A stretch of 44,150 bases of DNA from a virus (lineage: Duplodnaviria; Heunggongvirae; Uroviricota; Caudoviricetes), in the IMG/VR virus record IMGVR_UViG_3300045988_004957. One strand, 5' to 3'. Numbering within the stretch: position 1 is the first letter of the stretch; every line of letters starts with the position of its first letter. The notes below the pieces were generated by a model, which did not search any database, was not told the DNA's origin, and saw only the letters and a program-made list of their open reading frames with translations. Position numbers and translations under genes: made by a program. Positions 10,105 to 36,230 of the stretch are shown in pieces.

Positions 10105-11502
10105 TTAACTGTCCACATTAAAATCAATACGGGTGATGTACTTGCTTCCCCACGCAGAGTCTGCTTGAGGGATGGCGGCGTAACCGTCAACAGACGGAAC
10201 GTTTACCACAGAGCCGTCTGAATATGTAATATCAATGCTTGTTGCACCGTTCATTACTACTTTTGCCGATGCCGTCGTTCGGGTTACCGGTGACGATTCG
10301 GTTACTATTGGCGACGTGGCAAAAGGTGATTTTTCTATTTGCATCGCGCACACTAATATCCCACTAACCCCGTCACCGACAAATGAACCAACGGCGGAGT
10401 TGTTGTACACCCATGACGCTAAAAGCAGAGAAGATGCGCCGCCCTGGCGTATAGCTACCGTTTCTGTAAATCGATACCAACCATCGCCAAGCTCTGCTAT
10501 ATCGCTGCCGGGGGCGCCTGCGTAAATAACCCCTGTCGATAAGTTAGCAACACAATCCGCGATAAACCCAGCATCATCAGCGGCGCGAAGTCTCGCATAA
10601 TTATAACCATAGGCCTTAGCAACGTAACTGAGAGTGTATACATCACCCTCCGCAAAAGCGGAAGACACCGATTGATATACGAGATGGCTGTCGTTTGTCT
10701 GGTTCTGGACTAGCGAGAACGTACCACCGTTTAGAAATCCGTCAACTGCATCCGACACTGTTGTTCTAGTTTTAGTCCACGATGCGTCAGATAATTTCGA
10801 CGATTTAATCAGGATATTACTGGACGCGGATTCCGGCGGAACACGTCCAACAGCAACCCCATCAATAAACGTAAGAGGCCATTCATTAGCGGCGGACTGC
10901 ACAAGATTGCCGTTGCGGTTGATGTAATAAACCTGCGGCGCGTCATACACAATGCGGCTATCAAGAGTCGACGCCAGAAGGTTAATCGGTGGATACCCGG
11001 CAGGCCCTTCATTGCTCCAGATGCGCGGGAACGTTGTCTCATAGTTCGCGTATATTTTCAGGAAACTGCCCAGGCAATCACCATAACAGCCATACAAATC
11101 TGGCAGATTGTTAATCAGACACTGGTTCTCGAGGTCCTGGAACGGTGATTTCTCAGCGGTTGCCGTGAAAGTAATTGTCCAGTTAATCCCGTCTTCAGTG
11201 GACTCGGCGACGGTGGATGTAATGGTGACTTGATAATCCTCAATACCCATGCCGAAGTCGTGCGCCATCCAGAAACTTGACGCGCCACCATCGACTTTCT
11301 CGAGGAACGACAGAAACGCCTGCCGCCCCATTGCGGATGTAATCAGGGTTACGCTTATTGGGAACACATCATAATACGTGTCACGGCCTTGACGCACTCC
11401 GCCACCGGCTAAATCTACACTCCAGACGTTGTTGCGTCTGGTCATTGAGTAGCCTTTCGATACCACCGGCTTAAGGCTACGTGGGAAATATAAGTCGCTC
11501 AT
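10105..11502 (-). CDS. minor tail protein (distal tail region)
   Basis: 465 aa ORF immediately downstream of tape measure gene. Confidence 0.5.
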   Translation of the reverse strand: MSDLYFPRSLKPVVSKGYSMTRRNNVWSVDLAGGGVRQGRDTYYDVFPISVTLITSAMGRQAFLSFLEKVDGGASSFWMAHDFGMGIEDYQVTITSTVAESTEDGINWTITFTATAEKSPFQDLENQCLINNLPDLYGCYGDCLGSFLKIYANYETTFPRIWSNEGPAGYPPINLLASTLDSRIVYDAPQVYYINRNGNLVQSAANEWPLTFIDGVAVGRVPPESASSNILIKSSKLSDASWTKTRTTVSDAVDGFLNGGTFSLVQNQTNDSHLVYQSVSSAFAEGDVYTLSYVAKAYGYNYARLRAADDAGFIADCVANLSTGVIYAGAPGSDIAELGDGWYRFTETVAIRQGGASSLLLASWVYNNSAVGSFVGDGVSGILVCAMQIEKSPFATSPIVTESSPVTRTTASAKVVMNGATSIDITYSDGSVVNVPSVDGYAAIPQADSAWGSKYITRIDFNVDS

Positions 11503-13841
11503 TATTTAAACCCCGGCGCATTTCTTGTGGCCTTGCGGGCCTTGCTAATCTTACTGTTACTGTTCTGCAAAGAGGCAGCCACTTGCTCCTCGATGATGAT
11601 ACGCAAACGGCCTTCATCATCTTGCTCAGTGGATACGTTGCCGATTTGAGAACTCGTGTTGTTTACGATAGTAACATTAGACGGTCCGGAAGAAGACCCG
11701 TTTTGCCCCATAATTTCTTTCATCTGCTGTGCGGTGCGTACACGTGACGCACCAGCGGGCATGATAACTTCTGGTTTACCGCGTTCGGCGATGGTTGAAG
11801 CCTGCCCCGCGGATAACTGTCCGCCCTGTTCACGTGCGGACCTGATAGCGGAAATCTGCGCCATACCCGCCCCAACGGCAGCAGCGGCAGCTACAGGAGC
11901 CAGGAACGGGCCAACTACAGGGATAGCCGCTGTTGACTTATACGCCTCAATAGCCGCGGTGTACGTGGCTATAGTGGCCTGCACGATAGCGAATGCCTTG
12001 TACGCGCCAGAAGCCTCGCCCAAAGCCGAACCGATGTTTGAGGCCATGTTACCGAAGGCCGTTGCCGTTGCGTCGGCACGCTTCGTGGCGTACTGCTCGT
12101 TGATGGCATTAAGCGCAGCCTGATACTGCTTCTCACTAATCAAACCCTGCTCGCGGTACTTATCTGCTACCGACAGTTTCTGCTGTTCCTGAATGTTGAG
12201 AAGCTCAAGCTCAGCGGCGTTCTGACCCATAATCTGAGCCATGAAGTCTTCACCTTTCTGGTTCTTTTCCTGCCGTTCTTTCTCTCGTTTAGCGAGTTCC
12301 TCCTGGCGAGCAGTGTCCGCTTCCAGCATAATCTGCGTCTTGGCGTTTTCGTACTGCTGGTCGCTAAGAAGCTGATTGCCGTAAAACTCCTGTAGCTTGG
12401 TTAACTGCTGTTCCTGGTTGGCTTCTATTTTCTGGAATACGTCATCATTGAGATGAATTGACTGATAGTAGAAATCCTCCGCGGCTTTCTTCTGGCGCTC
12501 GAACGCATCCGCTGCTTTCTTAGCGGCTTTTGCACCCGCGCTATCATCTTCAGATCCGCCGCCGGTACCAGTTACCTTAAATTTACTAAGCCCTTCTTCC
12601 TTAGCGGCTTCTTTGTCGATGTCATACGCTGCGCGTTTAAGCGCGACGATATTTTGCTGAGCCTCCACCTGTTCGCGGAAACTTTTACGTGTCAGGTCCG
12701 CAACGTCGCGCTGAGTATCCAGTGCCATCCCCAGCTGGAAGTTAATATTTTTTGCTACGTCTACGGATTCCCCTGGTGTGAAGGCGGCCTTAACCAGCCG
12801 ACCGGCATCCTGCGCCCCTTTAACCATATCCTCAAAGAAGCGCTCCATCGCGGTAAATTCTTCCGCGATGAAATCGAGCGCATCGGCGGCTGATTCCGCT
12901 ATGGTTGTCGCCGTTTGTTCGCCGCTATCCGTGATACTTTTGCTACTAAAATCCCAAAGCTCATTTAGCCCGTTTATCGCATCACCCACGAAACCAAATG
13001 CCGCGTCGAATGACATCTCTATTGCGCTTCCTACTTCCGACGCGATGTCACCCCACATACGCATCTCTGCGGCAAGTTCACCGGATGCAACCTGTGCGTT
13101 AAGTTCCTGGATTAAATCATCGATGTATCGGATAGGTTCGGCGAGCGCACCAACATCAAGACTGGTAGCCAGTGTCATTTTTAACTGCGACCATGAGTCG
13201 CTGGCACTGGCGATGGCCCCGTTAAGTGTGTTGGCCTGGTCCGCCATAGCCCCCGCGAAGTTTACGTTACCGATGTTGAGCAGGTATTGCTCGATGTCGG
13301 CAGCGCTCTTCTTAACTACCGTAGTAGTACCCTGGAATGTAAATTCAACATCGTTTTTGTTCTGTTTGGCCTTGATACCAAATTCTTTAAGGCGCTCAAA
13401 TTCAAAAGTACTAGCGTCTGCAACCGCCTCAATCATCTGATTCAGGTCTTTACCCATAGCAGCGGCGGTGTTTCCGTAGGAACGCAACGCTTCTTCTGAC
13501 GGTGTAAGACCAAGCGCCACAAGTTTACGGAATCCCTCTACCGCCTGTTCAAGGCCATACGGAGTGTCGCGCGCGAAGTCTTGCAGGATGCTTAACGCCT
13601 GTCTTGCACCCTGCGTGCTTCCGGTTAGTGTTTTCAGGCTGGCGGACATCTTGTCCAGTTGCCGTTGGGATTCTACCAGTTCCTGTGCGGCCTTGTAAGC
13701 GGTAGCGGCGACGATGGAAGCGAGGCCCGCTACCGCAGCTCCGGCTACCTTTGCAGACTTGGAAAGGTTATCAAGACGGTCTGATGTAGCTTTCGCGCCT
13801 TGCTCTGATACTTTTACAACTAAACTAGCTACATCAGCCAT
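11502..13841 (-). CDS. tail tape measure protein
   Basis: 779 aa, Ala/Gln/Glu-rich helical protein downstream of chaperone pair. Confidence 0.8.
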   Translation of the reverse strand: MADVASLVVKVSEQGAKATSDRLDNLSKSAKVAGAAVAGLASIVAATAYKAAQELVESQRQLDKMSASLKTLTGSTQGARQALSILQDFARDTPYGLEQAVEGFRKLVALGLTPSEEALRSYGNTAAAMGKDLNQMIEAVADASTFEFERLKEFGIKAKQNKNDVEFTFQGTTTVVKKSAADIEQYLLNIGNVNFAGAMADQANTLNGAIASASDSWSQLKMTLATSLDVGALAEPIRYIDDLIQELNAQVASGELAAEMRMWGDIASEVGSAIEMSFDAAFGFVGDAINGLNELWDFSSKSITDSGEQTATTIAESAADALDFIAEEFTAMERFFEDMVKGAQDAGRLVKAAFTPGESVDVAKNINFQLGMALDTQRDVADLTRKSFREQVEAQQNIVALKRAAYDIDKEAAKEEGLSKFKVTGTGGGSEDDSAGAKAAKKAADAFERQKKAAEDFYYQSIHLNDDVFQKIEANQEQQLTKLQEFYGNQLLSDQQYENAKTQIMLEADTARQEELAKREKERQEKNQKGEDFMAQIMGQNAAELELLNIQEQQKLSVADKYREQGLISEKQYQAALNAINEQYATKRADATATAFGNMASNIGSALGEASGAYKAFAIVQATIATYTAAIEAYKSTAAIPVVGPFLAPVAAAAAVGAGMAQISAIRSAREQGGQLSAGQASTIAERGKPEVIMPAGASRVRTAQQMKEIMGQNGSSSGPSNVTIVNNTSSQIGNVSTEQDDEGRLRIIIEEQVAASLQNSNSKISKARKATRNAPGFK

Positions 13842-14193
13842 CGTTTCTACCCTCGAAAATAGCGTCTAAGCTCATGATGATGTCAGATTCAAACATGCCT
13901 ATATTCTGGCCTGAAACGGTGCTGTATGCCACTAAATCCGACCATCTTAACTGTTCGCGCGGGTACATCTTGATGCCATCGTCATCCACTCGGCGGGTAA
14001 ATTTGATTTCCCGGTACTTCTCGAAGGTGGTTAATAGTTCAGGGGGGCATTCCGGCCCGGTGTCCTGCGTTGCTTCCGGCGCATCTTGCATAACCCCCAT
14101 AGCAATTAGCGCGGCTTTATGCCCGTCGGCAATACTGTCAAACTCCCGCCGTTTGTGGCGGGCTATGAAGTTCCAACGGGCAAACTGGAGCAA
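13834..14193 (-). CDS. tail assembly chaperone, T-like frame
   Basis: ORF in the -1 frame relative to the upstream chaperone, beginning before its stop; annotated start is TTG. Confidence 0.5.
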   Translation of the reverse strand: MLQFARWNFIARHKRREFDSIADGHKAALIAMGVMQDAPEATQDTGPECPPELLTTFEKYREIKFTRRVDDDGIKMYPREQLRWSDLVAYSTVSGQNIGMFESDIIMSLDAIFEGRNDG

Positions 14194-14198
14194 CGCGT

Positions 14199-14615
14199 CT
14201 ACTTTTCCTGCAATTGGTGAAGCTGTTCGTTGTGGAAAACAACAACGTGTTCAGCGAGGCGTTTATATTGTGAAAAAAGAGTATTCAGGTTCTCTTTATT
14301 AAATTCATCGTCGAGACTCCAACCGTTAACCAGTTCAAGTGCTAACTGGCGGTTAAGGTCCGTCGCGGCGTCTTCCATCTTAATGTTATATTCCGAGAAA
14401 TCTTTCAGTTCCTCGCATTTATCACGAAGCGGCTTCAGTTTACCTAACGACGCGCGGTACGCCAGGGTAAATGCACGCATGGCTTTAACCGCAACGTCTG
14501 CCTCCGGTGAAACAACGTTCAGCCACTCCCCTGAATCGGTGCCGTCTTTCAGTGGGATCGGCATACGGGCGCCTTTTTCTGCCTCAGCTTCGTAATAAAA
14601 ATCAGAAAGTTTCAT
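14199..14615 (-). CDS. tail assembly chaperone (G-like)
   Basis: 138 aa acidic ORF immediately upstream of the overlapping T-like frame and tape measure. Confidence 0.55.
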   Translation of the reverse strand: MKLSDFYYEAEAEKGARMPIPLKDGTDSGEWLNVVSPEADVAVKAMRAFTLAYRASLGKLKPLRDKCEELKDFSEYNIKMEDAATDLNRQLALELVNGWSLDDEFNKENLNTLFSQYKRLAEHVVVFHNEQLHQLQEK

Positions 14616-14722
14616 TCTTTAATCCTTTGGTTAAGAGGTTACGGGTTAAGGTTAATGCGCCAGACGGGAACCACCCGCTTTTCGTGTGCGACACTAGGCG
14701 CAAAATTATTCTATCACATTAC

Positions 14723-14751
14723 TTGCACACCCCAATATAATAGTGTACTAT
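14723..14751 (+). promoter_or_regulatory. sigma70-like promoter with embedded dyad (site 1)
   Basis: TTGCAC-17 bp-TACTAT; dyad AATAGT-GT-ACTATT at 14739..14752; 40 bp upstream of ATG 14793. Confidence 0.55.
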
Positions 14752-14792
14752 TCACTTACACCAACGATGTTATCCCAAACAGGAGCTACACC

Positions 14793-14984
14793 ATGACGGG
14801 TATTACTATGTTCTTCTTAATCATTATCGTTTTAGTTTATTTTATTCCATTTCTCGTGGCGCATATGCGCGACCATAAAGCGAAATTAGCGATATTCATG
14901 GCTAATCTGTTTCTTGGATGGGTTCTGCTGCCGTGGGTATTTATTTTAATCTGGGCTTGCAACTCGAATGTCAAAGAGAAGTGA
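14793..14984 (+). CDS. superinfection-immunity-like small membrane protein
   Basis: 63 aa, two TM helices, FIPFLVAHMRDH ... NLFLGWVLLPW pattern recalls Imm-type proteins; SD AGGAG 7 nt upstream. Confidence 0.5.
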   Translation: MTGITMFFLIIIVLVYFIPFLVAHMRDHKAKLAIFMANLFLGWVLLPWVFILIWACNSNVKEK

Positions 14985-15021
14985 GCTAGTATAGGACAAA
15001 TCCTAAGCACTAGGAATAAAC

Positions 15022-16152
15022 ATGGCCCGGAAGAAAATAACCGACGAACAGTTGCAGGAAGAATTGAACGCCGGTATGAAGAATGTAGATATCGCCCGTA
15101 AATACGGCATCTCAGACCGCGTAATTCGTATCCGTAAAGCGAAGCTGGCTAAGAAAGGCGTGGGCCACGGGCGCGACGTTAGCCACCTTGTGCCAGACGG
15201 CTACAAGATTAAAGGAACGTCGTCACTTGTGGACGAGTTCGGCAACACTAAGTTGCAATGGGTTAAGACTGATACCGACGCCGAACGTCAGGTTGAATTG
15301 ATGAAAGCCGTAATAGAGGGCATGAAGTCAGAGATTACGCCCGTTGCGCCTGTTAAAGCGGCGCGCGCCAAACGTGACGACAAGCTACTCAATCTTTACA
15401 CTGTATCTGATTTCCATCTCGGTATGCTGGCATGGGCCGATGAGAGCGGCGACGACTGGGACATGAAGATTGCAGAAGACCTGTTCTCTCGGTGGTTCGA
15501 CGCGGCGTTTCAGAAAGCACCGGATGCAGGAACAGGAGTTATTAACCTGCTTGGGGACTTCGCACACTTCGATAGTCTTGATGCCGTTACCCCGGAGTCG
15601 CGCCATGTATTAGATGCGGATACTCGCTATCAGAAACTGGTACGTTACATGATTCGTATGGTCCGCCGTGTTGTTGATATGGCGCTGGTTAAGCATCACA
15701 CAGTAAAACTTTTAATCGTTCAAGGTAACCACGACCCTGTTGGCTCCGTATGGCTTGCCGAAATGTTCACGGTTTTATACTCAAACGACAGCCGAGTGAT
15801 TGTTGATACGTCGCCGGATGTTTACAAGATGGTGCAACACGGCAAAACGACGCTGTTCTTCCATCACGGGCATAAAGCACGATTCGACGCTATCGAACCG
15901 GTTATGATTGCCAAGTTCCGTAAAGCGTTCGGCGAGAGTGTTTACAGCTACGCCCACGTAGGCCATCTGCACCACCAGAAGATTGTAGAAAGCCGTAACA
16001 TGATTATTGAGCAACACCGCACCTTAGCGGCTAAAGACGCCTACGCCTCTCGCGGCGGATGGATGTCGGGCCGCAGTGCAAATGTAATTACTTATAGCGC
16101 CGAATATGGCGAGGTCGCACGTTTAACTATTTCACCGGAGATGCTGGGATGA
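15022..16152 (+). CDS. metallophosphoesterase with N-terminal HTH-like region
   Basis: Calcineurin-like motifs DxH (SDFHLG), GDxxD (GDFAHFD), GNHD (QGNHDP), HHGH, GHLHH; basic HTH-like N-terminus. Confidence 0.7.
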   Translation: MARKKITDEQLQEELNAGMKNVDIARKYGISDRVIRIRKAKLAKKGVGHGRDVSHLVPDGYKIKGTSSLVDEFGNTKLQWVKTDTDAERQVELMKAVIEGMKSEITPVAPVKAARAKRDDKLLNLYTVSDFHLGMLAWADESGDDWDMKIAEDLFSRWFDAAFQKAPDAGTGVINLLGDFAHFDSLDAVTPESRHVLDADTRYQKLVRYMIRMVRRVVDMALVKHHTVKLLIVQGNHDPVGSVWLAEMFTVLYSNDSRVIVDTSPDVYKMVQHGKTTLFFHHGHKARFDAIEPVMIAKFRKAFGESVYSYAHVGHLHHQKIVESRNMIIEQHRTLAAKDAYASRGGWMSGRSANVITYSAEYGEVARLTISPEMLG

Positions 16153-16637
16153 AAGATATTGTAATTTTCGATTTAGACGGGACATTGGCCGACGGTACCC
16201 ATCGCTTACACCTGTTACCAAAAGATAACTACGGAGAAACGTGGGCGTGGAAGCCATTTAACATGGCCTGCAAAGATGACGCTCCGATATACGACAATAT
16301 CCATTTGTGTAGCGTACTGTGGCATTCCGGACTTACTATAATTATCCTTACCGGGCGAAGTGATGACGCTGAGGAGGAGACTCGCGAATGGTTACGAGAG
16401 AATAACGTTAGGTTTGACACGCTAATCATGCGCAGCAAACACGACAACAGAAAAGACATCGTAATTAAAGAAGAGGTGTTGCGTGCTTTCGGACTGGAAA
16501 GAATCTTGTGTGCGTTCGACGACTCTCCAGCGGTAATAAAGCATTTCCGTGACCTCGGCATAACCGCACACGCAGTTACCGAATACGACTGTAACGGGAA
16601 CTCTACACACTTAAAACCACACGGGAGCGATAAATAA
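16149..16637 (+). CDS. HAD-superfamily phosphatase
   Basis: N-terminal DxDGT motif (FDLDGTLADGT) and downstream Asp-rich motif; ATGA overlap with upstream gene. Confidence 0.65.
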   Translation: MKDIVIFDLDGTLADGTHRLHLLPKDNYGETWAWKPFNMACKDDAPIYDNIHLCSVLWHSGLTIIILTGRSDDAEEETREWLRENNVRFDTLIMRSKHDNRKDIVIKEEVLRAFGLERILCAFDDSPAVIKHFRDLGITAHAVTEYDCNGNSTHLKPHGSDK

Positions 16638-17191
16638 TGGCTAAGGTAATTATTCTTAATGGCCCCGCGGGTTGCGGGAAAGACACGCTTGCTATGGCGC
16701 TGGTAGAAATGGGCTTTGCGAAAGGAACTACCAGTTTCAAGAATCCAATGTTCAATATTGCTTTGGCAGCGTTAGGCCAGGATGCTTACCACGAATTTCT
16801 CGACGGCTACGACGACCGGGCGCGGAAAGAAAAACCCGAGGGTTTTCTTAATGGGTTGTCCCGCCGCCAGTTAATGATTGCCATTTCTGAGCAATTCATT
16901 AAACCGGTATTCGGCGATGATTATTTCGGTAAGTATCTTGCTGAAAACTTGCCTGACGGCGACGAAGTTTTTGTAGTGTCCGACGGTGGATTCGCCAGTG
17001 AAGTTGCCCCTATCGTCGCCGCGGGGCATGACGTGCGAATCGTCCGCCTCCATCGTGACGGCTATACGTTCATCGGCGATAGCCGTGGCTATCTGTACGA
17101 TGTTAGTGGTGTAAAAGATTACGACACCTACATCATACCGGGTGACGTTAAATCGAACGTTATAGACATTGCTTTAAAATTAGGTTTGTAA
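16637..17191 (+). CDS. P-loop kinase (dNMP-kinase-like)
   Basis: Walker A with GKDT variant (NGPAGCGKDTLA); 184 aa; last gene before terminator. Confidence 0.6.
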   Translation: MAKVIILNGPAGCGKDTLAMALVEMGFAKGTTSFKNPMFNIALAALGQDAYHEFLDGYDDRARKEKPEGFLNGLSRRQLMIAISEQFIKPVFGDDYFGKYLAENLPDGDEVFVVSDGGFASEVAPIVAAGHDVRIVRLHRDGYTFIGDSRGYLYDVSGVKDYDTYIIPGDVKSNVIDIALKLGL

Positions 17192-17195
17192 GAAA

Positions 17196-17222
17196 AAGGC
17201 CCCGAAAGGGGCCTTAGTTTTA
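17196..17222. terminator. bidirectional rho-independent terminator
   Basis: AAGGCCCC-GAAA-GGGGCCTT followed by AGTTTTA; near-identical to the terminator at 4644. Confidence 0.7.
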
Positions 17223-18392
17223 TGCGTAGGTGATACGTTGAATTACGATAGACGACTGGTACTGATTGCCGGTAGCCTGGCCTTCAATGGACTGAGTGAT
17301 TGACTCAGGCCCACCAATCTCAGGTGTAACCGCCGTAAGCTCTGCTCGTTTCAAACTGAAAGACATAGCCCCGTTTACCCCTGCCAGAATAGAGTTAATC
17401 TCTACCTGCTGCTCGTTGATAAACTTCTGAATCATCGCCATGTCGTACAGCTTGCCAGAGATAGAGAATGTGTTAGCTGCGCGTCCACGTTCGACGAACG
17501 CCACGCTACTGTTACCGAGTTCGAACTGCGCGGAAGCTCCGTTGTCGTTGGTGATGGTGAGAGTATCGCAACGCAACGGCGTGGAGCCATCGAACACCGA
17601 CACATCTACCGACGAGAACGGCTCATCGGTGAACGTAACCTGAGAGAAATCAGAGCCAGACGGCGGCGCGGTAAGAATCTCCTGACTCAGGCCGATGAAC
17701 GGGAAGCTGCCGGTGACCATGGCGTTAACCGCCTGCTCTACGGTAAAGCCAGAGATTTCCACACCTTTGGTCAGCATGTACGCGTCCGGGTTACCACACT
17801 GGCCCTTGAACCACGTCAGGATGGAGAACGTCTTACACGCGTTACCGGTTTCCAGCTTGTCGCCAGTTTTTGCGTCAGTGGTTACTGTCTCTGCTGTCAG
17901 CGTGTGCTGAATACCTGCGCCCGTAACTACCAGAGCGGAAACCGCGGTCACGATAAACGGTTTTGCGTTGTCGCCGGTTAAGTCGGTGAACGCAATAAGG
18001 TCGCCAACTTCTACACCGTCAGTAATGAAGCTACCGGCAGCGCGGGTGAATGTTTTACCTGCTGGGGCGACCATAATTTCGGCGCCAGTAATCTCTACCC
18101 CAGCTTGCCACGTAGAAGTCATCGCTCCCGCAAGGAAATCATCCTGGCTACGAGAGCTAAGTTCGATGGCGTACTCCCCGCTAACCTGTTTGTTACCGGT
18201 TCGGATGGATGTAGTTTCACGGCTGCCGTCTAGTTCGTTGGAAGTCAGCGCATCGCGGGTTACGGCAGGAACACCGCCAGTGTTACGCAACGGCGACCAG
18301 ACAGGGTTAGCCGGTGTTACGCCCGGGGTAGTTTCCGCCACATAGAATTGCGCGGTATTCGCGCCCTTAAAAGGAGTTGTAGCCATATTCAC
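17220..18392 (-). CDS. putative major tail protein
   Basis: 390 aa Thr/Gly/Ala-rich ORF at the position of a major tail subunit. Confidence 0.5.
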   Translation of the reverse strand: MNMATTPFKGANTAQFYVAETTPGVTPANPVWSPLRNTGGVPAVTRDALTSNELDGSRETTSIRTGNKQVSGEYAIELSSRSQDDFLAGAMTSTWQAGVEITGAEIMVAPAGKTFTRAAGSFITDGVEVGDLIAFTDLTGDNAKPFIVTAVSALVVTGAGIQHTLTAETVTTDAKTGDKLETGNACKTFSILTWFKGQCGNPDAYMLTKGVEISGFTVEQAVNAMVTGSFPFIGLSQEILTAPPSGSDFSQVTFTDEPFSSVDVSVFDGSTPLRCDTLTITNDNGASAQFELGNSSVAFVERGRAANTFSISGKLYDMAMIQKFINEQQVEINSILAGVNGAMSFSLKRAELTAVTPEIGGPESITQSIEGQATGNQYQSSIVIQRITYA

Positions 18393-24274: not shown

Positions 24275-24303
24275 TTGCACACCCCAATATAATAGGGTAC
24301 TAT
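24275..24303 (+). promoter_or_regulatory. sigma70-like promoter with embedded dyad (site 2)
   Basis: TTGCAC-17 bp-TACTAT, near-identical to site 1; dyad at 24291..24304. Confidence 0.55.
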
Positions 24304-24330
24304 TCAGTTAACTTAAACAGGAGGTGAAAA

Positions 24331-24534
24331 ATGTATGCAATTTGCGAAGTAGTTCAAGAGTTCGATGAAGAGTTCGACGGTGACTTGTGCCGTGTTAAAA
24401 AGGTTCTGCAGGTTTTCCCTGACGCAATGTCTGCTTACAGGGCATTAGATATATTTGAACCTGGAAGATACGGGGATTATGACACTGTTCTGAGGGTTGT
24501 CCATGAGCAGGATTTAAACACAAGATTCCGTTGA
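24331..24534 (+). CDS. hypothetical protein (moron-like, 67 aa)
   Basis: Lone plus-strand ORF with SD AGGAGGTGA, own promoter and terminator inside minus-strand structural module. Confidence 0.55.
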   Translation: MYAICEVVQEFDEEFDGDLCRVKKVLQVFPDAMSAYRALDIFEPGRYGDYDTVLRVVHEQDLNTRFR

Positions 24535-24539
24535 AAACT

Positions 24540-24562
24540 AAGGCCCCTTAATGGGGCCTTTT
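24540..24562. terminator. bidirectional rho-independent terminator
   Basis: AGGCCCC-TTAAT-GGGGCCT followed by TTTTAT; between convergent genes. Confidence 0.65.
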
Positions 24563-31762: not shown

Positions 31763-32248
31763 TCAACCTTTCACCGCGCGCCCGATAGCCTCTGCCTCTT
31801 GCCACGGTTTACCGTCGAACAGTGCCAGACGTCCGGCGGTACGGCGACGCAGGCCTAGTAACGGTTTGCCGTTCTGGTTGATGAACAGCGCCAGCTTAGC
31901 CCGCAGCGTTGCAATATCACCAGAACGCAGTGCCTTACCCGTGCCGGTAGTAGCTGCAATCACACCAGCACCTGCGTTGTATACCAGGTCGCACACTGCA
32001 TCGAACTGTGCCTGTGTCAATGAATGGTGTGCTGCTGCGTCAACCGCAGCTACGGCCTTAGCCATATCGCGATTCAGTAGCAGTAGACCTTGTCCCGGCG
32101 TGATTGTTTGCCCCGCCTTAACGTCCGGCCCGTAGTGACCGTACCCGATAGTCAGGTACTTCTCATTTGGCGTAGCACGATACGCAGTTCCGCGGAATCC
32201 CTCGAACGCGGCGGTGAATTTGATGCCATTGTTGCTAATGTTTCTCAT
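31763..32248 (-). CDS. endolysin (GH24 T4-lysozyme-like)
   Basis: N-terminal catalytic region FEGFRGTAYRATPNEKYLTIGYG with Glu-Asp-Thr spacing; no signal-anchor. Confidence 0.8.
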   Translation of the reverse strand: MRNISNNGIKFTAAFEGFRGTAYRATPNEKYLTIGYGHYGPDVKAGQTITPGQGLLLLNRDMAKAVAAVDAAAHHSLTQAQFDAVCDLVYNAGAGVIAATTGTGKALRSGDIATLRAKLALFINQNGKPLLGLRRRTAGRLALFDGKPWQEAEAIGRAVKG

Positions 32249-32778
32249 AAAGCACCTTCCCGTAATTTATGGTTCGCGAAAACCCCGTGTATCTTCTCTC
32301 TAGCTTCTTCGGCAACTAGCGCGGCTAGTTCTAGGTCCGCAAAGTATCCGTAAAAATACTTAATCTTATGTATTTTTAATTGAACGTACCATCCTCCTTG
32401 TTGCTTCTGCCACATAACGTTCTTAATACCGGATTTGCTGTCCTTTCTTGGCCCTTTGTTGCATCCGTTTTCGGATTTGTTGGCTTCACGTAAATTACAG
32501 AATCTATTATCACGACCATCGCCGTTTATGTGGTCTATTAGGGAGTTGGGCCATTCCCCTGTCATGTATAGCCAAGCGAGACGATGCGCCAAGTACCGCT
32601 TCCCACCGAAGGCTATGGAGCGATAGCCTGCACAATGGTTGGCGCCAGCCTCACTTCCCGCCCGAGCATTGTGCACACGTGTAGCTTTCCATGTAAAAAC
32701 TCCGGTATCGGGGTCGTAGTGTAAAACCTCGCGCAGCTTATCTGCGGTAAGTCCATTATCTGAAATGTTTCGAGACAC
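32245..32778 (-). CDS. HNH endonuclease
   Basis: HNH core LIDHINGDGRDNRFCNLREA..N; start taken at GTG 32778 with SD GGAGGA; ATGA coupling to endolysin. Confidence 0.75.
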   Translation of the reverse strand: MSRNISDNGLTADKLREVLHYDPDTGVFTWKATRVHNARAGSEAGANHCAGYRSIAFGGKRYLAHRLAWLYMTGEWPNSLIDHINGDGRDNRFCNLREANKSENGCNKGPRKDSKSGIKNVMWQKQQGGWYVQLKIHKIKYFYGYFADLELAALVAEEAREKIHGVFANHKLREGAL

Positions 32779-33028
32779 GCTTATGTCCTCCGTACGACAG
32801 CCACGCCTGACGAATCTGGCGCAGCGCAACTAAAGTGATTAATGTTTCCGGCAGCGTCGGTGACATGCTGCCTTGTAACAGGTGGATACAACCTGCGGCG
32901 CAGACAATAGCAGTGAGGATATACAGCACACGACCAAACAGACCGTCGTCTACGCTGGGGTGGTATACGTTAAACAGCGATGTGCCCCCGATTGCGAGCA
33001 TACCGCAAAACCAGAATAACTCATTCAT
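32756..33028 (-). CDS. two-TM membrane protein (holin-associated)
   Basis: ATG 33028 overlapping holin stop; two hydrophobic helices. Confidence 0.45.
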   Translation of the reverse strand: MNELFWFCGMLAIGGTSLFNVYHPSVDDGLFGRVLYILTAIVCAAGCIHLLQGSMSPTLPETLITLVALRQIRQAWLSYGGHKRVSKHFR

Positions 33029-35088: not shown

Positions 35089-35118
35089 CTCTGCCTCTCC
35101 TCTCGTTTGTGTAAATGA

Positions 35119-35147
35119 ATAGTAGACTATTCTATCCCAGTGTGCAA
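35119..35147 (-). promoter_or_regulatory. sigma70-like promoter with embedded dyad (site 3)
   Basis: Minus strand TTGCAC-17 bp-TACTAT; perfect dyad AATAGT-AG-ACTATT at 35118..35131. Confidence 0.5.
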
Positions 35148-36167: not shown

Positions 36168-36201
36168 TTCTAAATTCCTTATGTCTCGTTCCGATAAGTG
36201 A

Positions 36202-36230
36202 ATAGTATCCTATTATGTTGGGGTGTGCAA
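36202..36230 (-). promoter_or_regulatory. sigma70-like promoter with embedded dyad (site 4)
   Basis: Minus strand TTGCACACCCCAACATAATAGGATACTAT; dyad at 36201..36214. Confidence 0.55.

Follow-up and report, generated by a model that had tools for sequence, protein, structure and literature searches.

A T4 Imm-family protein with a putative role in superinfection exclusion, encoded within the tail module of a Kagunavirus

Phage HK97 encodes gp15, an inner-membrane protein that blocks incoming DNA. SieA of phage P22 is also a phage inner-membrane protein, and it stops incoming DNA from crossing the cell envelope (PMC11436027, PMC10883804). The Imm protein of phage T4 (imm; NP_049660, 83 aa; genome NC_000866) is an early inner-membrane protein that, together with the periplasmic protein Spackle, blocks further infection by T-even phages, and the labour is divided such that the step affected by Imm is the passage of DNA into the cytoplasm and the target of Spackle is the gp5 lysozyme (PMC7677548, PMC10002423, PMC11436027). 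The molecular mechanism of T4 Imm is unsettled; the protein has also been tied to resistance to lysis from without and to the stability of lysis inhibition, and it was said to resemble a holin (PMC6832632). T4 Imm is the founding member of PF14373 and PHROG 1039. An exhaustive phmmer search (E ≤ 0.001) gave 6,757 clusters at 50% identity for PF14373, whose members range from 58 to 216 aa and occur in many contexts, and ten cluster representatives were mostly unnamed metagenomic proteins. A chromosomal bacterial member, cj0423 of C. jejuni, lies in a non-prophage operon that is induced by phage infection (PMC6024767). Because the family is very large and includes such chromosomal genes, its name rests on one characterized member.

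We analyzed a member of this family encoded by a stretch of viral DNA of 44,150 nucleotides (IMG/VR record IMGVR_UViG_3300045988_004957), hereafter called the window. In this region, it shares 99.4% identity with Escherichia phage vB_EcoS-22664BS2 (NC_073324), which belongs to the genus Kagunavirus in the Guernseyvirinae. Kagunaviruses are virulent siphoviruses of small size with a dependence on surface glycans (PMC11990801). When the window was compared with 5,426 complete E. coli genomes, no match was found, which fits a phage other than a resident prophage; a prophage reading was ruled out by this absence. In a separate observation, the PLSDB entry CP088689.1, a sequence of 44,086 bp deposited as a non-mobilizable "plasmid" of an E. 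coli isolate from human blood, proved to be the genome of a Kagunavirus; it matches 87% of window positions 1-25000 at 95.5% identity, and its Imm-like protein is identical to that of the window.

The gene and its assignment to Imm are already known, and the gene is an ordinary feature of these phages, so that no novelty is claimed for the finding itself. The identical protein is gp39 of NC_073324, where it is annotated as "putative immunity protein", and most of the hundreds of related records carry the names "superinfection immunity protein" or "immunity to superinfection". For annotation the present analysis is of little consequence, since the nearest GenBank record and hundreds of relatives already name the gene correctly by homology. 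The Imm-like inference was published for Gp_027 of the Jerseyvirus SeF1, including the PHROG (1039) that it shares with T4 Imm (PMC9409062), and an imm-like gene was also mentioned in the paper on Kagunavirus phage P (PMC5582158). The window protein shows no difference of kind from the Guernseyvirinae proteins of this name (vB_EcoS-22664BS2 gp39, Golestan gp22, SETP3 ORF23 and SeF1 Gp_027), and these homologues, which measure 59-63 aa, share with it the position of the gene, the promoter box and the exonuclease-like gene downstream.

The imm-like coding sequence occupies positions 14793-14984 of the plus strand, with an ATG at 14793 and a TGA at 14982-14984, and its translated product of 63 aa is MTGITMFFLIIIVLVYFIPFLVAHMRDHKAKLAIFMANLFLGWVLLPWVFILIWACNSNVKEK. 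A Shine-Dalgarno sequence, AGGAG, can be read 7 nt upstream of the ATG (14781-14785, plus strand). The first hydrophobic helix (codons 4-23; 14802-14861, plus strand) reaches Kyte-Doolittle values of 2.5-3.2 in 15-residue windows and belongs to the variable half of the protein. It is followed by a basic loop, HMRDHKAK, which was located from the charge list and the hydropathy minimum (codons 24-31, H24-K31; 14862-14885, plus strand), and then by a second hydrophobic helix, which carries the family motif I-F...N-L-x-x-G-W...W...W (codons 32-56; 14886-14960, plus strand). In an AlphaFold2 model based on a shallow alignment (mean pLDDT 77), helices span residues 2-25 and 29-61 with a turn at 26-28. 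The coordinates, the hydropathy profile and the modeled helices all agree with the two-TM protein of 63 aa proposed in a preliminary description of this DNA. The protein is predicted to insert into the inner membrane as a two-helix hairpin, and the positive-inside rule would place the loop HMRDHKAK on the cytoplasmic side.

A length of 63 codons is in itself unremarkable for an ORF. We regard the ORF as a real gene because it matches a Pfam family above the curated threshold, is conserved in approximately 400 phage records (401 by tblastn) and has a median pairwise dN/dS of 0.09 (205 pairs from 21 distinct 63-codon alleles). As judged from these alleles, the gene is under purifying selection, and the pooled pN/pS was 0.39 in codons 1-22 vs. 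0.095 in codons 23-63. The protein itself or close variants of 58-63 aa were encoded at the same site in every Kagunavirus and Jerseyvirus locus that we fetched. Note that the reading frame is open further upstream and could give a 109-aa product starting at 14655; this extension was rejected as non-coding because it contains the promoter box and because relatives differ in length within it by an 11-nt indel, as a result of which the spacing between the -10 element and the imm ATG is either 41 or 30 nt among relatives.

Membership of the protein in the T4 Imm family is established by several sequence comparisons and by shared invariant residues. The preliminary description had likened the product to Imm-type proteins and had named a profile-HMM comparison with that family as a check. 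This comparison was significant: residues 15-56 matched PF14373 (Imm_superinfect) over model positions 1-42 of 42 with 51.5 bits (E 9.5e-14), against a gathering cutoff of 27.9 bits, and T4 Imm itself matched the whole 42-position model with 58.2 bits. The window protein also matched PHROG 1039, "immunity to superinfection", with an E value of 1.6e-23. In a direct BLASTP comparison with T4 Imm, 28% identity was found over 54 aa without gaps (pairwise E 1e-11), and hhalign of a Guernseyvirinae profile with T4 Imm gave a probability of 96.5% (E 9.4e-10). Furthermore, tblastn reached annotated Imm genes of T4-like Straboviridae, namely those of Proteus phage phiP4-3, Cronobacter phage LPCS28 and Citrobacter phage CkP1, at 34-57% identity. 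Residues Y16, P19, I34, F35, W43, W48 and W54 do not vary in an alignment of proteins from the Guernseyvirinae, T4, a Bragavirus and an Acinetobacter Obolenskvirus. In the basic loop, R26, H28 and K31 hardly vary when T4-like Imm proteins are included in the alignment. A word-indexed homologue search returned 9 close relatives. Other resources gave little for the protein: PF11742 (DUF3302) covered the same residues as PF14373 and stayed below threshold (25.9 bits vs. a cutoff of 32), NCBIfam gave no meaningful match, no anti-phage defence model of PADLOC-DB matched at E ≤ 1, and no PDB chain matched at E ≤ 10.

T4 Imm and the window protein share the pattern Y..P...R...IF...W....W.....W and an architecture in which a short basic loop connects two hydrophobic helices, their hydropathy profiles and the positions of their charges run in parallel, and both come from virulent coliphages. 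The window protein is however 20 residues shorter, and it lacks the longer N-terminus of T4 Imm and its polar C-terminal tail of 15-20 residues. The genomic settings also differ, since T4 imm has genes 42 and 43 as its neighbours whereas the window gene heads a nucleotide-metabolism operon inside the tail module, and so do the hosts of the two genes, T4 being a myovirus and the window phage a siphovirus with a different DNA-delivery apparatus. In addition, T4 Imm works with Spackle, which is a property of the T4 system and not of the Pfam family. The window phage is without a Spackle partner: a search of the window with T4 Sp by tblastn and phmmer detected no homologue (best E 1.2). Given that the phage is a siphovirus, that identity to T4 Imm is 28%, that Spackle is absent, that the T4 mechanism is unsettled and that the family is huge and has chromosomal members, a simple transfer of T4 Imm function is doubtful.

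P22 SieA and HK97 gp15 would share with the imm-like protein its proposed mode of action, by analogy. No sequence relationship to either protein was detected, as the only profile matches of the imm-like protein were PF14373 and the sub-threshold DUF3302. The two proteins also differ from it in being made by prophages in lysogens, whereas the window phage is virulent. Class II (two-TM) holins resemble the imm-like protein in size and in forming a two-helix hairpin in the inner membrane; unlike their genes, the imm-like gene is not located beside an endolysin gene, and the phage has two holin genes of its own.

The imm-like gene is the first of four plus-strand genes, in line with the promoter-proximal position given to it in the preliminary description. 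The second gene (15022-16152) encodes a 376-aa protein that matches phrog_704, "DNA repair exonuclease" (PHROG E 3.7e-162), and its Metallophos Pfam matches are below cutoff. It is followed by a gene for a 162-aa protein with a HAD-type polynucleotide kinase-phosphatase domain (16149-16637; PF25109 HAD_PNKP, 73.1 bits) and by a gene for a 184-aa P-loop protein that resembles deoxynucleoside monophosphate kinases (16637-17191; phrog_139, E 7.1e-45). The second to fourth genes overlap or abut, with the third overlapping its neighbours at both its start and its stop. A terminator scan found a GC-rich hairpin of 8 pairs, 6 of them G-C, at 17196-17215, which begins 5 nt past the end of the block and closes it; the hairpin scores as a terminator on both strands and also lies 3' of the minus-strand tail tube gene. 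The whole block (14793-17191) is set, opposite in direction, among minus-strand tail genes, with the tail assembly chaperones and the tape measure on one side (11502-14615) and the tail tube gene on the other (17220-18392). An imm homologue heads the plus-strand block in both Kagunavirus and Jerseyvirus, and in Jerseyvirus SETP3 the imm and exonuclease head is retained and the distal genes are replaced by others.

In passing, we observed that the product of the second gene carries, ahead of its metallophosphoesterase-like domain, a basic N-terminal segment of ~45 residues that resembles a helix-turn-helix and weakly matches a "late transcriptional activator" PHROG (E 6e-4).

A sigma-70-like box, TTGCAC-17 nt-TACTAT, lies at 14723-14751 on the plus strand, 41 nt upstream of the imm ATG. 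The conserved box that had been described ahead of the gene is indeed present, and it occurs four times in the window where 0.02 copies are expected; none of 100 shuffles reached four. The relaxed pattern TTGCRY-N17-TAYTAT gave no sites in the window beyond these four. Alignment of the four copies shows a common box of ~36 nt, TTGCACACCCCAAYATAATAGnnTACTATTCAnTTA, which extends beyond the -10 element; the copies are located at 14723-14758 and 24275-24310 on the plus strand and at 35112-35147 and 36195-36230 on the minus strand. Apart from the copy at imm, one precedes a small plus-strand ORF at 24331, and two precede leftward units starting from 35147 and 36230, in a region of small, mostly unannotated ORFs. 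In all related Kagunavirus and Jerseyvirus loci, the box is conserved 5' of the imm homologue as TTGCAC, TTGCGC or TTGCAT, 17 nt, and TACTAT or TATTAT, and the SETP3 record has a BPROM promoter annotated at the homologous position. On the basis of the consensus match, this conservation and the SETP3 annotation, the imm-like gene is probably driven by the TTGCAC-17-TACTAT box. An alternative hexamer pair, TATAAT at 14736-14741 with ATCACA as the -35 element, was also considered and rejected: the other three copies do not preserve ATCACA, and TATAAT has the variants TAGAAT and CATAAT, so that TTGCAC and TACTAT, which are invariant in the four copies, are the better-supported pair.

Since the same box also heads the leftward units at 35147 and 36230, transcription by the host RNA polymerase fits the arrangement, and sharing the box with these units is compatible with early expression of imm; the box may then be an early promoter. 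The only Kagunavirus RNA-seq study that we found, on vB_Eco_K1B4, reported that the imm homologue is transcribed and placed it, with coarse sampling, in the "late" class with a peak at 110-120 min, which speaks against early expression. That "late" class also takes in the genes for methylases and DNA polymerase, and the "middle" class holds the tail and capsid genes; the sampling probably spans more than one infection cycle. The authors of that study connected the imm homologue to lysis. We take from these data that the profile of the imm homologue differs from that of the flanking tail genes, and draw nothing further from them. As an observation on the box itself, its conservation, including the part 3' of the -10 element, exceeds what a sigma-70 promoter needs, and because this conservation continues well past both hexamers, the box may in addition contain the site of a regulator or an element of the start site.

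Taken by analogy with T4 Imm, the most probable role of the imm-like protein, in which we place somewhat better than even confidence, is a putative exclusion in which a superinfecting genome is blocked at DNA entry. The gene would be expressed as the first cistron of a four-gene operon, followed by the exonuclease-like, polynucleotide kinase-phosphatase-like and dNMP-kinase-like genes, and a host-type sigma-70-like promoter would drive this operon in the orientation opposite to that of the tail genes around it. In a cell infected by the virulent Kagunavirus, the 63-residue hairpin would enter the cytoplasmic membrane with its basic loop in the cytoplasm. When virions of the same or related phages arrive later, their genomes would be kept from crossing the inner membrane, so that the DNA would stay outside the cytoplasm as proposed from the T4 case, and the phage would benefit from an undisturbed first infection and from progeny undiluted by competitors. 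The literature that we searched contained no exclusion experiment on any Guernseyvirinae homologue. Kagunavirus and Jerseyvirus phages serve in therapeutic and biocontrol cocktails; should exclusion be active, it would be of modest practical relevance, as the members of a cocktail could interfere with one another. A minimal homologue of 63 residues in a small, engineerable siphovirus, for which nature has already swapped the first helix, would also be convenient for working out the mechanism of T4 Imm.

The swap of the first helix concerns a sharply bounded segment. Compared with other Kagunaviruses, a divergent cassette at 14769-14873 (plus strand) comprises the 5' UTR, the ribosome-binding site and codons 1-27 with the first helix. 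Identity to Kagunavirus P AB-2017 is 97-100% in the intergenic and promoter stretch 14590-14768, falls to 30-67% in 14769-14873, and is 90-100% from 14874 onward. In the same comparison, pS and pN were 0.68 and 0.36 in codons 1-27 vs. 0.27 and 0.02 in codons 28-63. Two N-terminal alleles, beginning MTGITMFF (as in the window) and MSSLPVSL, are found in Kagunavirus, and a third, MSVFIGII, in Jerseyvirus. Because synonymous and non-synonymous differences are both high, the cassette looks, from these sequences, like an old allele exchanged by recombination, and not like a product of recent positive selection. Its occurrence between otherwise near-identical phages may be a minor new detail. The cassette could determine the specificity of exclusion, with the Imm hairpin acting, in a siphovirus, on the inner-membrane step that the tape measure mediates; we hold this combined proposal to be quite improbable. 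If it were true, Kagunaviruses with different first-helix alleles would exclude different sets of competitors, and the DNA-entry step targeted by Imm proteins would be common to myoviruses and siphoviruses.

The exchange of the first helix among close relatives would also be expected of a specificity determinant that faces a variable partner. The Imm fold may have been turned to a different target in the host inner membrane, for instance a transporter, or an effector of defence or abortive infection at the membrane that the protein would inhibit, with phage exclusion absent or incidental. The size of the family, which is mostly uncharacterized and varies widely in length and context, is in keeping with such a role, as is the phage-induced chromosomal operon of cj0423 (PMC6024767), and no PADLOC defence model matches the protein. 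However, nothing points positively to any specific alternative target, and what the protein shares with T4 Imm is precisely its conserved half. We therefore consider this explanation unlikely.

Exclusion at DNA entry also has to be weighed against a role in membrane protection or lysis timing, in which the protein would guard the inner membrane of the infected cell against the harm done by secondary adsorptions (lysis from without) or against premature triggering of the holins. The latent period would then be lengthened or secured, and superinfecting DNA would still enter. The likening of T4 Imm to a holin (PMC6832632) would suit such a function, and so would the two-TM hairpin, a shape also found in class II holins and antiholins, and the assignment of the K1B4 homologue to the late class, which its authors connected to lysis. 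The location of the gene argues otherwise: it is distant from the holin, endolysin and spanin genes, and is instead grouped with nucleotide-metabolism genes under a promoter of the type found at 35147 and 36230. Moreover, a block of DNA transfer is the best-documented activity of the founder T4 Imm. We thus judge a membrane-protection role to be distinctly unlikely.

The window has a lysis cassette elsewhere: two holin homologues (33329-32759) directly 5' of the endolysin gene (32224-31769), and spanins at 23955-23463. Because these separate lysis genes are present, the imm-like gene is not the lysis holin; it lies 17 kb from the endolysin gene, and its product matches no Pfam or PHROG holin family. 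That the ORF, short and hydrophobic with two TM segments, is nonetheless a phage holin or a chance ORF without a product is scarcely credible in view of those two holin genes, the strong purifying selection, the conservation in two genera, the curated-threshold Pfam match and the canonical ribosome-binding site. Within the lysis region, we also observed ~0.5 kb of DNA that is extra relative to phage Golestan, located between the second holin gene (ending at 32759) and the endolysin gene (starting at 32224); this segment (32245-32829, minus strand) contains a minus-strand ORF of 194 aa.

Two further observations concern the structural module around the imm block. The intergenic stretch 14616-14722, which separates the divergently oriented tail-assembly-chaperone gene from the promoter box, is nearly invariant in Kagunavirus and largely conserved in SETP3, whereas the adjoining chaperone gene is only 30-70% identical. 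A structured RNA was considered for this stretch and rejected, as it folds no better than its shuffles (z 0.29); it has no second copy in the window, and Rfam gave no match anywhere in the window. Because minus-strand transcripts arriving from the tail tube gene are expected to end at the hairpin at 17196-17215, the genes for the chaperone, the tape measure and the distal tail might have their promoter or leader in this stretch; a consensus minus-strand promoter was not found in it.

The second observation is that the copy of the promoter box at 24275 heads another insert of opposite strand within the structural module (24275-24562). This insert contains a plus-strand ORF for an acidic protein of 67 aa (24331-24534), for which no Pfam or PHROG match was found, followed by a GC-rich hairpin. 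At the same slot, phage Golestan carries a different gene, gp05, whose product has an N-terminus resembling a lipoprotein signal and is without a homologue in the window, and the slot resembles a site at which morons are exchanged.
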